Below are positions 58,682-64,000 of a stretch of DNA of 64,000 bases, piece after piece. This DNA comes from an uncultured Clostridia bacterium. Its GTDB lineage: Bacteria; Bacillota; Clostridia; Christensenellales; UBA1242. The translations under genes were made by a program, and so were the position numbers. Every line of letters begins with the position of its first letter. Position 1 is the stretch's first letter. The notes below the pieces were generated by a model. The model saw only the letters and a list, made by a program, of their open reading frames with translations, was not told the origin of the DNA and did no database searches. The stretch covers positions 96 to 64,095 of the forward strand of contig CALWOU010000003.1 of the NCBI GenBank assembly GCA_944383245.1, written 5' to 3'.

Positions 58682-59155
58682 TTATTGCTTATTTACACAT
58701 ACTTTGTTTACAGAATTTAATATAAGTATTGCCTTGGTTTGTATATATGAAATATATTCATTCATATAATTCCAGTCAGGTTCACCATTAACTGTAGATG
58801 GCAATTTTATTGTTTCCTCAGTTATTGAAGACGAAGATAACTGATTATTATAAGAATATTTTGTAAATTTATTCCTTATAATCGACGAAATAAATAGACC
58901 AGAATTTAAATTTAGGTTTTTATTATACAAGAGTATAATTGCAGAACCTGCACCGCCTCTTCCTAAAAAATCTTTGTCTTGATAAAAAGAAGATGCATCA
59001 ATAGGGCTCACAGTAATACAGTTACCTTTATCTAGAGTCTCATTATTTTTAGGTTTGCAAAATTTAATTATTCCGTTATTGTAATTTCCGGAGGCTATAA
59101 ATGGGACATTTCCATCTTCATAGTCTGATACACTTCGTGCAATTGGTCTTTTCAC
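58682..59155 (-). CDS. hsdS: specificity (HsdS/BcgIB-like) subunit, C-terminal half (TRD2), out of frame with the upstream half
   Basis: This frame stays open upstream to the poly-G tract ('GGGHRFEINQWKEFKIKELFEVKRP...'). It ends with the conserved 'NGEPDWNYMNEYI' repeat. Confidence 0.75.
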   Translation of the reverse strand: MKRPIARSVSDYEDGNVPFIASGNYNNGIIKFCKPKNNETLDKGNCITVSPIDASSFYQDKDFLGRGGAGSAIILLYNKNLNLNSGLFISSIIRNKFTKYSYNNQLSSSSITEETIKLPSTVNGEPDWNYMNEYISYIQTKAILILNSVNKVCVNKQ

Positions 59156-59193
59156 TTCAAATAATTCTTTAATTTTAAATTCTTTCCATTGAT

Positions 59194-59748
59194 TTATTTC
59201 AAATCTATGCCCCCCCCCAGCAAAATTTGGATTAAGCTCGACAATTTTTCTTGTGATAGTTTTTCTATATGCTTCATATAAGATTCCATATAATTCCAGT
59301 CAGGTTCACCATTTTTATCAATTGGTAACCTGATTTTATGATAAATTAAAGCTTTAGAAGAACACATATTGTTAAACTGATATTTTTGAGATGTTGTTTT
59401 TTCAATAATTGAGCACATAAACTTACCTATATTTTCAGTCATTTTAATTTTTTCTTTTGGAATCAATATATTAACTCTACCATGCCCAACAGCATAAAAT
59501 TGAGTATTTTGATAGAAAGCTTTACCAAACATATCTACTGTTATTGAGTTTGAAGGAAATAATTCACTTTGATTCGTTTCGCTAATATATTTACATATTC
59601 CATTATTAGTCATCCCAGATGAAACAAGCGGGATATTGCCTTCATTGCTTATTTTTGCTTGTATATCCCCTTTCGCCAATTCAATATTAAATAAATCACC
59701 AACTTTGAATTCTCCCCAATTCGAAATATCTATCTTATTCATTTGCAT
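59194..59748 (-). CDS. hsdS: specificity (HsdS/BcgIB-like) subunit, N-terminal half (TRD1 + central conserved repeat)
   Basis: 'WGEFKVGDLFNI', 'NGEPDWNYMESYMKHIEKL'. The start overlaps the methylase stop. It terminates 5 codons after the G9 tract. Confidence 0.8.
   Translation of the reverse strand: MQMNKIDISNWGEFKVGDLFNIELAKGDIQAKISNEGNIPLVSSGMTNNGICKYISETNQSELFPSNSITVDMFGKAFYQNTQFYAVGHGRVNILIPKEKIKMTENIGKFMCSIIEKTTSQKYQFNNMCSSKALIYHKIRLPIDKNGEPDWNYMESYMKHIEKLSQEKLSSLIQILLGGGIDLK
59210..59218 (-). repeat. homopolymeric G9 (C9 on plus strand) tract at the junction of the two S halves
   Basis: Read directly: 'tatgc ccccccccag'. G10 would fuse the two frames. Confidence 0.95.
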
Positions 59749-61522
59749 CTTTCTCCCTTATTTCTATAGAGTCACTATACAATATTTTCTTTAAAAGTTG
59801 ATTGCCAAATTCTTTAACATCAATTCCTTTCTTAAACATTTCATAATCCATCATTGTTTTTATAAAATCTTCTTCATATATTTCAAAATGTTTTTCAGGC
59901 ATTTGATATGATAGATGTTCTTTCGAATTCACAATTTGGATAAATTCTTGCACATCTTTTGCTTCTTCACATATAGGATTTTCTATAATTTTAATCCATT
60001 TATCTTCTATTGCTTGCCATCTACCCTTAATGTCTTGTCTGCCTTGATTTTTAACGGTTTCCAGACCATCATCTTCAATATAGCAAGCAAATATTTCTTT
60101 ATCATTATGTGGAACCCCTGCTTCAAAAACAAATATGCTTGTAGTTACACCCACACCAAAGAAAAGATTCTCTGGTAATTTTATAATCTTTTTTAATGTG
60201 TGCTTTTTCAATAATTTATTGCCATACTTTTTATCGGTGAAATCTTTTTCTAATTTTTTATCAGGCAAAATAAAAGCACAGGCAGTATGCTCTGGAACAT
60301 TATCTAAAACATTTTGAACGATTGTCATACAACCGTATTTTCTTTCATAAGGCGGATTCATTAAAACTTTTGTTATATTTTTACTCTTAATCCAATTACA
60401 AGCTTCTTGACTTCTTGCATCTAATTGCTCTAAATTTGTTTTTCCGTCTTTATGTATAAGCATATTAGCACAGGCTAGTGCAAATATCTCTCTATCAAAT
60501 TCTATACCAAATAATTGAGATTCACGAATTTGTTGAGATTTTTTTGTTTTTAAACCTCCAGCTTCTTTCATCATATTACACATTGCTTTTACTAAAAATG
60601 CACCAGAACCACAAGTTGCATCCAACACTTTATCATTTTGGTTAATGTTAATTAATCGATACATAAATGAAGTAATGTGGTCAGGCGTAAAAATTTGTCC
60701 AGCTTCTGATTTGCCTTTGTAACGATTAAATTCGTTAAAGAAAATACCCATGACATCTTCGCCATTCCAATAGTCTGAATTTGTGCATTCTGATATTTCT
60801 GAAACCCATTCAATAAAATTGTTTATTGCTTCTTGGTTCGCACTATTATTCATTTTAATTTCTGCATATACTTCAACTAATAAATCAAGTTTGAGATTTT
60901 GCTTTTTACTCTCTTCTAAAGATTTATTTAATGTGCTTAAAATAGAATTCTTCATTGTCGCAAAATTCATATTTTTGACAAGTAATGCATCGTATCTTTT
61001 AGCAACCAAAGCACAAGCAGTAAATATCATTCTGTGATATAGATTTTTAATACCAAAATCAATGTGCAGGCAATCATTGATTTTTTTTGTTAAACTATAA
61101 ATATGTTGTTTATCAATGGTGTTATGTGCAAATAAATCTAAATAATAATGTTTATCTTGTAATTCATTAGAAAGACCAGACATCTCTACATTGTCTTTGA
61201 AAATTCTAATATCGCTACCATTGTACAAAATACCAATCACATGCGAATATTTAGTTAAAACAATTTTACAATTTTTAATAAGTTCATCTGCCCATTTTTG
61301 CAGATAAATATCTTCATATTCTGATTTTGTTTCCAAAATAATTGCGGGCAATGTTTTGTTGTCTGGTAAATACCAACCATCAGGTTTATTGTTGTTCCCC
61401 CTAAAGCCTAATTGATTAAACGTTGTAATTTGTCCAGTGCCTTGTTTTATACCATCTTCTTTTTTATCAAAATTTAAAATAAATTTTGCATTATCACGAA
61501 TTTCATCTTCAGTTCTTTTCAT
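59735..61522 (-). CDS. N6-adenine DNA methyltransferase subunit with N-terminal PD-(D/E)xK-like region (type IIB BcgIA-like or type I HsdM)
   Basis: Motif I 'VLDATCGSGAFL', motif IV 'VLMNPPYERKY'. The N-terminus has 'KPDGWYLP...PAIILETKSE'. 595 aa. Confidence 0.85.
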   Translation of the reverse strand: MKRTEDEIRDNAKFILNFDKKEDGIKQGTGQITTFNQLGFRGNNNKPDGWYLPDNKTLPAIILETKSEYEDIYLQKWADELIKNCKIVLTKYSHVIGILYNGSDIRIFKDNVEMSGLSNELQDKHYYLDLFAHNTIDKQHIYSLTKKINDCLHIDFGIKNLYHRMIFTACALVAKRYDALLVKNMNFATMKNSILSTLNKSLEESKKQNLKLDLLVEVYAEIKMNNSANQEAINNFIEWVSEISECTNSDYWNGEDVMGIFFNEFNRYKGKSEAGQIFTPDHITSFMYRLININQNDKVLDATCGSGAFLVKAMCNMMKEAGGLKTKKSQQIRESQLFGIEFDREIFALACANMLIHKDGKTNLEQLDARSQEACNWIKSKNITKVLMNPPYERKYGCMTIVQNVLDNVPEHTACAFILPDKKLEKDFTDKKYGNKLLKKHTLKKIIKLPENLFFGVGVTTSIFVFEAGVPHNDKEIFACYIEDDGLETVKNQGRQDIKGRWQAIEDKWIKIIENPICEEAKDVQEFIQIVNSKEHLSYQMPEKHFEIYEEDFIKTMMDYEMFKKGIDVKEFGNQLLKKILYSDSIEIREKDANE

Positions 61523-61525
61523 TCT

Positions 61526-61744
61526 TTAATTTTCTCCTTTAATTACGGTTATTTGTTTACCATTTTTTAATTTTAGTACTATATTTTTGGTTCCTGTTAG
61601 TTCAACCTCATCATTTTCAATATACAAGACTAGACTATCTCCATTTTCAACATGCAATAGTTTTCTTATTGTTTTAGGCACGGTTATTTAGCCTTTTGGA
61701 AAAAGAATTACTTTTTTAATTTTTTTCCATTTTCTACACTCCAT
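61526..61744 (-). pseudogene. AbrB/SpoVT-type small DNA-binding protein with in-frame TAA
   Basis: The minus strand reads 'MECRKWKKIKKVILFPKG*ITVPKTIRKLLHVENGDSLVLYIENDEVELTGTK...'. TAA at plus-strand 61688-61690. The ORF ends 3 nt before the methylase ATG. Confidence 0.65.
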
Positions 61745-61885: not shown

Positions 61886-62395
61886 ATGCATAATTCAGAA
61901 TTTATGATAGTTGCAATGTACCAAGGGTTGAGACGTGGTGAAGTGTTAGGCTTAACTATTGACAATATAGACTTTGTTAACAATACCATAACTATAAACA
62001 AAGCATATAATCAACAAAACAAATTTGACACTACAAAAAATAAACAATCAAATAGAACTATACCATTATTTGAAGAAACTAAAACAATTTTGCTAAAATA
62101 CAAAAATCAAAAAGAACGCATATTTAACTTAACAAATAAACAAGTTGAGTTGATTTTAAAAGAGATTAGGAAACAAAGCAAAATAGAAAATTTAAAATTA
62201 AAAGATATGCGTAGCACATTTATTACAAGATGCAAAGAATTAAATATTCCAACACACGTAATACAAAGTTGGGTCGGACATACAATAGGAAGCAATGTAA
62301 CAAATATTGTATATACAAAACATAATAACGATATAGATAACAAATTTATTGATATAATAAACAAATCAAAATTATACACAAATTATACACAATAA
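61886..62395 (+). pseudogene. tyrosine recombinase/integrase, N-terminally truncated (catalytic domain only)
   Basis: 'GLRRGEVLGL', 'LKDMRSTFITR', 'SWVGHTIGSNVTNIVYTKH' (R..H-x-x-R..H..Y pattern). No core-binding domain or RBS. Confidence 0.7.
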
Positions 62396-62655
62396 AAAAA
62401 ATGACCTAACAAAATAAACTATATATAGTTGTTAAGTCGTTTAAAAACCACAATATGCTGTGGTGTTTGGCGGGAAGACCGTTATCCAATCCTAACCCCC
62501 AAATCTACATTGGTGCTAGGTGGATTAGGATTGTTTTTAAAATTTAAAAGGGCACTATATTGTATAAATTTTAGAAATGTGTTATAATGCAAGTGTTAGT
62601 TATTATCTATGGAATAATTAACTCCCCCCAAAAAAATATTTTTGGAGGTGTTAAC

Positions 62656-63339
62656 ATGTTTGAATTTGTTAGCAAGAAAGAAGTATCTTTAGCGAGGAAT
62701 GAAATTGAACCAATAATACATAAAGTTCAAAATTATTTAAGAAAAAATAATATTATGACTTTTCAGTATTATCTTGTTGGGAGTGCTAGTAATCGTAGAC
62801 ACCTTGTTACCAGAATTGTTGGTGGTAATCAAGGATTTGATATGGATTATAATATAATAATCAAATCAATAAATAAAGCATACGATGATGCAGAAAAAAC
62901 AAAACATATCATAATGGAAACCTTTAATAAGTTTCTTCTTAAAGGTTTTAAAAATTGTGAAGATTCTTCATCTGTATTTACAATTAAAAAAATAGATAAA
63001 CAAAACAGTAAAATAATTTATAGTTTTGATTTTGCGATTGTAAATTATTATAATGAAGATATTCAGAATCCTGACTTTGATTATGATGACCCAGAAGATG
63101 AATATGAAACAATTGAAAGGCAAGAATATATTTATTTTGACAAACAAAATAATAAATATTTTTGGAAACTACGTCCTATTGCTTTTGACGACCATAGATA
63201 TAAAGAGCAATATGTGAAAGAAGAAGGGTTGTGGAACGAGTTAAGATATTTATATCTTAACCAAAAAAACAACCAACAAACAAAAAAGTCAAGAATCATA
63301 TATTATGAAACTTTAAATCAATTATTCCAAAAATACTAA
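62656..63339 (+). CDS. Pol-beta superfamily nucleotidyltransferase (SMODS/CD-NTase-like minimal enzyme, tentative)
   Basis: Start at 'MFEFVSKKE' after GGAGG. 'YYLVGSASNRRHLVTRIVGGNQGFDMDYNIII' (GS ... DxD) and a third acidic residue in 'YSFDFAIV'. Confidence 0.6.
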   Translation: MFEFVSKKEVSLARNEIEPIIHKVQNYLRKNNIMTFQYYLVGSASNRRHLVTRIVGGNQGFDMDYNIIIKSINKAYDDAEKTKHIIMETFNKFLLKGFKNCEDSSSVFTIKKIDKQNSKIIYSFDFAIVNYYNEDIQNPDFDYDDPEDEYETIERQEYIYFDKQNNKYFWKLRPIAFDDHRYKEQYVKEEGLWNELRYLYLNQKNNQQTKKSRIIYYETLNQLFQKY

Positions 63340-63408: not shown

Positions 63409-64000
63409 TTAAGATTTTGAAATAGTGAATATTTTGCTATATAAATCAATTAATACTTCAGTAGAAAAGTCAATTATTGGTTCAAACATAAATGAATTAA
63501 TATGAATGTTTTCGCTAGTTAGTAAAAGTATTTTATTAAATAAGGCAACATTGTCTTTATTGTCGTGAAAATTATTTTTATATAATTCTACCAGTTTCCC
63601 AGTTTGGTTTTTATTTGGAATTGATTTTAATAAGTCATCTCCATTTTCAAGGTTTTTAACTTCTTTGATAATAAAATCTTCCATAAGCAATCTCTGTGCC
63701 ATTGACAATATTATTTTATCGTCCAAGTCAACATTGTCATTATTTCCACTTTTTACTATACTAGAAGCTGTAGATATAATAATATCTTTAACTTTTTCAG
63801 TTTCTTTATCTTTTGCAAAATCAAAAGACTCATTTGTTAAAACCTCATTATATATTGTTTGTAAATCCAGTAATGTTAAAGTCTCAGTATCTTCTTTTAT
63901 ATGTAGTAAAGATGTCAATCTAATGTAGCTTTCATCACTTTCATCTTTAGTATATTCAATTAAATTTCTAATAAATGGAATAGCTGTAATTATATCTTTA
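63409..64000 (-). CDS. C-terminal part of a larger protein running off the window edge
   Basis: The reading frame stays open upstream of the track's TTG start to position 64000 ('KDIITAIPFIRNLIEYTKDESDESYIRLTSLL...'). Family not recognised. Confidence 0.6.
   Translation of the reverse strand, partial: KDIITAIPFIRNLIEYTKDESDESYIRLTSLLHIKEDTETLTLLDLQTIYNEVLTNESFDFAKDKETEKVKDIIISTASSIVKSGNNDNVDLDDKIILSMAQRLLMEDFIIKEVKNLENGDDLLKSIPNKNQTGKLVELYKNNFHDNKDNVALFNKILLLTSENIHINSFMFEPIIDFSTEVLIDLYSKIFTISKS

Follow-up and report, generated by a model that had tools for sequence, protein, structure and literature searches.

The 64-kb stretch of contig CALWOU010000003.1 analysed here (the window) comes from the 43-contig draft genome (1.17 Mb) of an uncultured Clostridia bacterium of the Christensenellales. 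Its minus strand, in DNA of 30% G+C, carries two adjoining genes which, in our estimation, quite probably constitute a self-contained restriction-modification system of the kind represented by BcgI and BsaXI (Type IIB; in REBASE such enzymes are called Type IIG), with a specificity gene that can be switched by a poly-G tract. The first gene, RM, is described in the existing annotation as just 'N-6 DNA methylase'. Its product starts at the N-terminus with a PD-(D/E)xK nuclease and continues through a helical connector into a gamma-class N6-adenine methyltransferase, behind which lies a C-terminal region. The second gene, S, specifies an HsdS-like protein, but as encoded here it is split into two open frames, S1 and S2, which meet at a run of nine G (Table 1). 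Related loci found in metagenome assemblies and among GTDB species representatives are referred to by L numbers, and groups of proteins by P numbers.

The G9 run lies between the first helical conserved region (CR1) and the second target-recognition domain (TRD2) of S, and the number of G residues decides the reading frame. With nine G, translation ends at ...LLGGGIDLK*, while ten G fuse the two frames into a protein of 355 aa with two TRDs and two helical conserved regions. Eight or eleven G give no fusion. A first-pass annotation of the window, made from the sequence alone, had predicted both outcomes (with a fused product of about 350 aa) and had placed the split at this run; the matches of both halves to Pfam Methylase_S agree with it. 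The fused protein found no sequence match in the PDB. The tract is the sole G or C run of 7 or more in the window. In the whole genome there are four such runs, each exactly 9 nt long, where a model of independent and identically distributed bases expects 0.12 runs of at least 9.

The other three runs (C1:41866, C8:9232 and C16:6130; L127-L129) are intergenic and each abuts the sequence TATACT. They are found upstream of the genes for TrpRS, for a 635-aa protein without assigned function, and for LepA. One of them reads TTGACA-N17-TATACT, with the G9 run inside the spacer. The motif G8TATACT was absent from 20 relatives, 12 of which are species of the same genus.

Table 1. Features of the RM-S locus and its flank. 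Positions are those of the window.
Feature	Position	Strand	Remarks
S2 (TRD2 + CR2), open frame	58682-59209	minus	Methylase_S, 1.6e-07; frame intact, near-identical in L003
27-nt direct repeat, copy 2	58763-58789	minus	NGEPDWNYM; TRD2/CR2 boundary
S1 (TRD1 + complete central helix CR1)	59194-59742 (59194-59748 from first ATG)	minus	Methylase_S, 1.8e-17
G9 tract (C9 on the plus strand)	59210-59218	minus	CR1/TRD2 junction; a tenth G would fuse the two halves
27-nt direct repeat, copy 1	59287-59313	minus	NGEPDWNYM; TRD1/CR1 boundary
RM gene, 595 aa	59735-61522	minus	Open reading frame; N6_Mtase, 1.7e-27; PADLOC REase_MTase_IIG
Methyltransferase motifs	60347-60622	minus	Motif I DATCGSGAF, residues 301-309 (from 60622 downwards); motif IV NPPY, residues 389-392 (60347-60358)
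Nuclease domain, residues 1-120	61163-61522	minus	alpha-beta-beta-beta-alpha-beta fold
Candidate catalytic residues D48, E64, K66	61379-61381, 61331-61333, 61325-61327	minus	P47-D48...E64-T-K66
AbrB/SpoVT-like putative controller, pseudogene	61526-61744	minus	Weak MazE_antitoxin/AbrB matches; abuts RM start
Tyrosine recombinase, catalytic domain only	61886-62395	plus	169 aa; Phage_integrase, 3e-13; 162 aa in L003, L132 and L136
250-aa protein	62587-63339		No family match
PDC-S46-like frame, running off the window end	63409-63999	minus	Matches C-terminal part of PADLOC candidate PDC-S46, E 7.8e-59

The proposal that the tract is a slippage switch is upheld by its length polymorphism between assemblies of relatives that are otherwise identical. 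Three pairs (L005/L012, L024/L027 and L041/L044) are 100% identical over 3.3-3.6 kb save for one gap at the tract, where G9 is opposed to G8, G7 and G8, respectively. The junction G(n)AGAAACGC was seen once with G8, ten times with G9, and once with G10. The G8 and G10 forms (L012 and L133) are split, and the G9 forms are complete at 354-360 aa (L005-L011, L130 and L131) or in frame to the end of the contig (L136). In group P0022 the tract is G9 in four intact genes and G7 in a split one; in group P0011 there are four G9 genes (two complete and intact, two in frame to contig ends) and one that is G8 and split. Among GTDB representatives, tracts of G7-G10 are present in Bacteroidales and other genomes, the S gene being split in L084, L085, L095, L112 and L118, and intact in L086 and L098.

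When the classified census and later loci are taken together, about 14 of the 32 loci with a tract have a split S gene, a count in which the loci are partly dependent and the assembled homopolymer lengths are consensus calls. Of S genes without a tract, 4 are split, 65 are full-length, and 16 are half-size only, so that splitting affects 4 of 69 two-TRD loci. The association between splitting and the tract gave a Fisher p of 2e-5 on an earlier raw count (12 of 27 tract-bearing loci split), and of 1e-4 with one genome per species, the latter test taking 45 as the number of full-length tract-free genes among species representatives. Groups P0026 and P0024 (20 loci, RM identity 89-90%) have no tract, and in all of them S is an intact gene of 364 aa. 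Several alleles carry TAA or TAG immediately after the tract, so that one frame ends cleanly after the glycines, and the placing of the tract at '..L-G-G-G' is identical in alleles from Clostridia and Bacteroidales. These comparisons point to a slippage-prone poly-G run, set exactly between CR1 and TRD2, which in relatives appears to decide by its length between two S products, and which would be expected to switch in the same way within the population of the present host.

The start of S1 overlaps the stop codon of RM by 8 nt (ATGAATAA), and has a Shine-Dalgarno sequence, AGGGAG. Since L003 has ATA in place of the first ATG, the second ATG (59742) is the likely start, which gives a protein of 182 aa ending in ...LIQILLGGGIDLK*. 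Separate translation of S2, followed by reassembly with S1, is unlikely because the first start codon in that frame is a GTG at nt 59155, no Shine-Dalgarno sequence was found upstream of it, and the product would be without the first ~18 residues of TRD2. A -1 ribosomal frameshift joining RM to S was also considered and rejected, as the junction (AAGGGAGAAAGATGCAAATGAATAA) is without a G_GGA_AAG heptamer. A scan for promoters and terminators was uninformative in this AT-rich DNA (21 sites versus 24 expected), and no tRNA or Rfam matches were detected between 50 and 64 kb of the window.

The RM frame and its two methyltransferase motifs are present as described in the first-pass annotation. Pfam N6_Mtase spans residues 260-402, motif I precedes NPPY in the chain (the gamma-class order), and there are further matches to HsdM and to the RM protein of BsaXI. 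A whole-library phmmer search found 3,159 relatives, and 32 aligned members show no variation at residues G305, N389, P390 and P391. The region in front of this core is less easily recognised. Residues 1-250 matched nothing in Pfam, NCBIfam or a single-sequence search of the PDB, only the HsdM-like core being seen. As single-sequence searches detect the methyltransferase alone, the nuclease was revealed only by profiles, by a fold model, and by relatives.

These three sources agree with the earlier suggestion of an N-terminal PD-(D/E)xK nuclease, the alternative having been that the N-terminus consists of nothing more than the helices of an ordinary HsdM_N domain. Residues D48, E64 and K66, in a PD...ExK arrangement, are nearly invariant across 32 full-length homologues, the most divergent of which share 27% identity. 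When residues 1-140 were searched as a profile, NucS/EndoMS was matched (2vld_A, E 0.0045), with D...ExK falling on the NucS catalytic motif. The AlphaFold2 model of RM has a pLDDT (predicted local distance difference test) score of 85.8 overall and 93.6 for the N-terminal domain, in which the elements alpha(5-16), beta(25-29), beta(49-53), beta(60-65), alpha(75-89) and beta(95-100) are followed by further strands. The topology, as modelled, is that of the restriction-endonuclease fold, with D48 at the opening of the second strand and E64 and K66 at the end of the third. When the isolated domain was compared by Foldseek, nearly all top matches were PD-(D/E)xK nucleases, although at weak E-values (0.02-0.3); they included Cas4 SSO0001, the nuclease domains of DrdV and BpuSI, RecU, Hjc, VRR-NUC, and HsdR of EcoR124I. 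The N-terminal domains of 7 of 31 relatives match Pfam HSDR_N_2 (best 4.4e-10), and those of other relatives match HSDR_N, YhcG PDDEXK, the FokI cleavage domain, NERD, or Cas4. The ratio of nonsynonymous to synonymous substitution (dN/dS) is 0.04-0.07 in the nuclease domain, as low as in the methyltransferase domain, and 0.03-0.10 for RM as a whole. In a Foldseek comparison the full-length model could be aligned with the RM proteins of BsaXI (8w0p_A, E 4.6e-13), BpuSI and DrdV over ~610 columns.

Assignment to the classical Type I systems fails on two grounds, namely that there is no cognate HsdR and that the helical region has an additional alpha/beta nuclease domain in front of it. The first-pass annotation had already remarked that no hsdR is adjacent, and this is correct: the only hsdR of the genome, identified by a genome-wide search with TIGR00348, is at C4:7036-10209, inside its own hsdR-hsdM-hsdS operon. 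A single tblastn query with this HsdR, of limited sensitivity, found no HsdR-like match in ~120 related loci, and the genome contains no paralogue of the methylase or S gene of the window. The best PADLOC models were REase_MTase_IIG for RM (1.3e-40) and, for the fused S, Specificity_II (9.3e-31, versus 1.6e-5 for Specificity_I). The match of RM to the IIG models, like that to the BsaXI RM profile, spans the methyltransferase region only, and the likeness of the nuclease is at the level of the fold. With the nuclease domain found, no cognate HsdR, and Type IIG/II models fitting best, the BcgI-like layout first proposed (a nuclease-methylase chain with an HsdS-like partner) stands. The separate Type I operon is complete (C4:2589-10209, L023), with an hsdR of 1057 aa, an hsdM of 539 aa and an hsdS of 481 aa; behind it lie genes for an IrrE/Peptidase_M78 protein and for an HNH endonuclease.

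Judged by its sequence, the RM polypeptide would combine a PD-(D/E)xK nuclease and an N6-adenine methyltransferase in one chain, and the HsdS-like S protein would provide sequence recognition. By analogy with characterised enzymes, the stoichiometry would be (RM)2S. Such a complex is predicted to recognise a bipartite site, to methylate a single adenine in either half of it, and to cut unmodified DNA near the site, presumably on both sides of it. Recognition of the family as nuclease-methylase fusions with a switchable S corrects the annotation of a widespread defence system.

What the truncated product of the nine-G form might do is suggested by homologues. At 16 homologous loci S encodes only 169-195 aa and has no tract, and these natural half-S proteins end at the same alignment position as S1 (...SSLTALRSALR* compared with ...SSLIQILLGGGIDLK*). 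Many relatives (P0121-P0130, L061) have proteins of 750-830 aa in which the same RM of ~590 aa is joined to a single TRD ending in PDW.YM..YIK, so that RM and a half-S form one chain; among the more distant relatives, RM proteins of ~770 aa with one C-terminal TRD are numerous. With half-size S genes on the one hand and RM proteins carrying a single TRD on the other, one-TRD recognition modules appear from their sequences to be a normal state of this RM family. Because the end of the truncated S1 coincides with that of natural one-domain S genes of the same family, the switch is probably one between two-TRD and one-TRD specificity, and not simply between ON and OFF. The two-TRD protein would direct the enzyme to an asymmetric bipartite target, whereas S1 (TRD1 and CR1) would, by analogy, dimerise and direct it to a symmetric one. 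The genome of the window is in the one-TRD frame, and one extra G would restore the two-TRD protein. The idea, raised in the first-pass annotation, that the single-TRD form may function as a homodimer is backed by the half-size S genes of relatives and, by analogy, by the experiment on HpyUM032XIII described below. A switch of this kind predicts strain-level heterogeneity of methylomes in metagenomes, and the natural one-TRD and two-TRD variants of S represent a pool for the engineering of Type IIB specificities.

A direct repeat within S had also been singled out, as a possible means of TRD deletion or duplication. The repeat is real, being exact over 27 nt where the longest found in 300 shuffles was 15 nt. 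It measures 18 nt in L005, and in other alleles there is nothing above chance. Since it is confined to the allele of the window, it is not a feature of the family, and its interpretation as a designed deletion/duplication device was rejected on this account; no deletion or duplication between the copies was observed. What was found instead is an exchange of TRD1 between alleles. L133 has a different TRD1, combined with the same CR1, tract and TRD2 as L005, L136 and the window, and the switch point is at the NGEPDWNYM block (AAAAATGGTGAACCTGACTGGAATTATATGGAATC...), copy 1 of which forms the left boundary of the swap. A swap at this conserved block indicates modular exchange of TRDs between alleles, as in HsdS genes generally.

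Several observations weigh against a nuclease-methylase system with an operating switch in the present lineage. The window shares its context (an integrase fragment, a 1035/1042-aa protein, and GlyRS) with L003, L004 and L132, and also the junction G(n)CATAGATTT, which has the same total length in each (T plus G9 in the window, G10 in the others). S is thus split, and in an identical frame, in every one of the four assemblies that have this junction, with no switching of the allele seen, and the run in the window has been shortened by a G-to-T change. Relatives have a small DNA-binding gene (XRE HTH_26 or AbrB/SpoVT-like) directly upstream of RM, where the controllers of toxic-nuclease systems sit, and which may have such a role. 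In the window this gene is not intact, as an in-frame TAA (nt 61688-61690) replaces the Gln codon of KGQITVPK. The gene has an independent 1-nt deletion in L003, L132 and L136, and is intact in L005 (67-71 aa). In addition, homopolymer lengths can be miscalled in short-read assemblies, the Foldseek E-values of the nuclease domain are weak, as given above, and this domain of the window protein has no Pfam match of its own.

The most serious alternative is that the locus is a decaying remnant, silent, with S merely frameshifted, its controller dead, and the tract left over from a switch that has ceased to work in this lineage. The uniform split frame of the four genomes favours this, as do the nonsense codon of the window and the different deletion of L003, L132 and L136 in the AbrB-like gene, the truncated integrase next door, and the linker behind the tract, which is 9 nt in the window-type junction and 14 nt in the intact L005/L136 junction. 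As the linkers also differ, the frame difference between the window and L005/L136 is not due purely to tract slippage. Loss of the AbrB-like gene, however, fits the discarding of a dispensable regulator as well as it fits local decay. RM has stayed intact, and even a comparison of the window with L003 shows strong purifying selection on it (dN/dS 0.10). Both halves of S are open, and over 1029 nt the same two genomes show 12 differing sites, a dN/dS of 0.24, and no second lesion, while S1 is built like functional natural half-S proteins. L136 has the same species context, an RM that is 99% identical, and an L005-type junction with G9; its two-TRD S is intact as far as the contig runs, reading in one frame through the junction to a contig end that falls a few codons before the stop would be expected. 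Split and fused states thus both occur within the species. Decay of the locus is considered unlikely. A simple miscall, such that the real tract is in frame and S is intact, would be in keeping with the draft state of the genome and with the difficulty of judging runs of 9-10 G from short reads. It is highly improbable, given that L003, L004 and L132, from independent samples, have the same total junction length with G for T, and that other alleles are consistently assembled at G9.

There is also the question of whether the PD-ExK domain still cuts. Were it inactive, the pair would act as a solitary methyltransferase with its specificity subunit, and what the tract would switch is genome-wide methylation, as in a phasevarion, instead of restriction. 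Regulatory roles of phase-variable methyltransferases are well established, the strong sequence matches of RM are confined to its methyltransferase part, and switching on a live nuclease over an unmodified genome would be hazardous. The D-ExK triad is nevertheless nearly invariant, and selection on the nuclease domain is as strong as on the methyltransferase domain. The controller-like genes upstream in relatives are typical of toxic-nuclease systems, and the IIG and Specificity_II models of PADLOC give the best fit. Loss of cutting is, on this evidence, improbable, more so than decay of the locus, and roles in restriction and in methylation are not mutually exclusive. The reading preferred here remains that of a Type IIB system, with a nuclease that is probably active and an S gene that can be switched.

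In metagenomes as well as in 80 GTDB species representatives, the RM-S pair turns up again and again in unrelated genomic settings. Its hosts include Clostridia, Bacteroides salyersiae DSM 18765, Prevotella, Treponema, Actinobacillus and Mycoplasma-like bacteria, and the RM family as such is very large, numbering more than 5,000 close relatives, with members in gut Firmicutes, Bacteroidota, spirochaetes and others. Runs of G7-G10 at the same CR1/TRD2 position were found in Clostridia, Bacteroides salyersiae, Muribaculaceae, Paludibacteraceae and Faecalimonas. The locus of the cultured type strain B. salyersiae DSM 18765 (NZ_KB905467.1, L085) has an RM that is 70% identical and an S split at G9 into 175 and 154 aa. 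It is tempting to speculate, though with more doubt than confidence, that the poly-G junction is a portable switch module, maintained by selection and spread horizontally with the RM-S cassette across gut phyla, and that the one-TRD state and the loss of the controller in the species of the window are a favoured way of operating instead of signs of decay. In that case the toggling of restriction and methylation specificity at the population level would be routine among gut commensals, with measurable effects on the flow of phages and plasmids.

Beyond the AbrB-like pseudogene, the flank of the locus carries the fragment of a tyrosine recombinase, which is probably a remnant of the element that brought in the cassette, followed by the 250-aa protein and the PDC-S46-like frame. 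Together with the RM system these genes look like a small defence island.

Among characterised systems the closest parallel is HpyUM032XIII of Helicobacter pylori UM032 (Lee et al. 2015), which likewise consists of a BcgI-like RM fusion and a separate S gene, with a poly-G tract between the TRDs that splits S into S1 and S2, and a one-base change that fuses the halves. There the tract that separates S1 and S2 is G12 (PMC4450513). RM with S1 methylates the palindromic sequence CYAN7TRG, the S1-S2 protein fused at G11 gives CYAN7TTC, and S2 alone is inactive (PMC4450513). This behaviour is exactly what the first-pass annotation had modelled for the window. The two differ in tract length (G12 compared with G9) and in host, a gastric proteobacterium in the one case and a small-genome gut Clostridia-like bacterium in the other; the activity of HpyUM032XIII was established by experiment. 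Poly-G tracts also occur in the BcgI-like S genes of the H. pylori systems HP1471/HP1472 and JHP1364/JHP1365, with 13 versus 14 G (PMC3936762), and the corrected form of the latter, Hpy99XXII (Krebes et al. 2014), methylates TCAN6TRG (PMC3936762). Both resemble the locus of the window as BcgI-like Type IIB systems with a phase-variable poly-G in S, a likeness drawn here without regard to the position of the tract in the gene. In the Type I system NgoAV of Neisseria gonorrhoeae, a poly-G in hsdS leads to a truncated, one-TRD S and an altered, symmetric specificity (cited in PMC4450513). The homonucleotide tract inside the S gene is shared with NgoAV, but that system has a separate HsdR motor, while here the nuclease is fused to the methyltransferase.

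BcgI and BsaXI are not known to be phase-variable, but they share with the locus an N-terminal PD...ExK nuclease and a gamma-class N6-adenine methyltransferase in one chain, the lack of a translocase, and an HsdS-like subunit of ~340-360 aa. The A subunit of BcgI has 637 aa, compared with 595 aa for RM in the window. No sequence similarity to BcgI or BsaXI could be detected in the nuclease domain. In BcgI both catalytic centres reside in the A subunit, with Glu53 in a PD...EXK motif, and the enzyme is A2B, B being HsdS-like (PMC3592470). BsaXI is (RM)2S, and its N-terminal PD-(D/E)xK domain has the catalytic residues E73, D90, E105 and K107 (PMC11997821; PDB 8w0p). The spacing D48-x15-E64-x-K66 resembles D90...E105-x-K107 of BsaXI, the RM of which is considerably longer (916 aa); the present protein is without its knob and paddle elaborations. 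The design of the switch is thus not novel, as its mechanism was demonstrated in H. pylori in 2014-2015. The locus described here is a further example of a poly-G switch in an S gene, well supported by computational, population-level evidence, and from a host group different from that of H. pylori.

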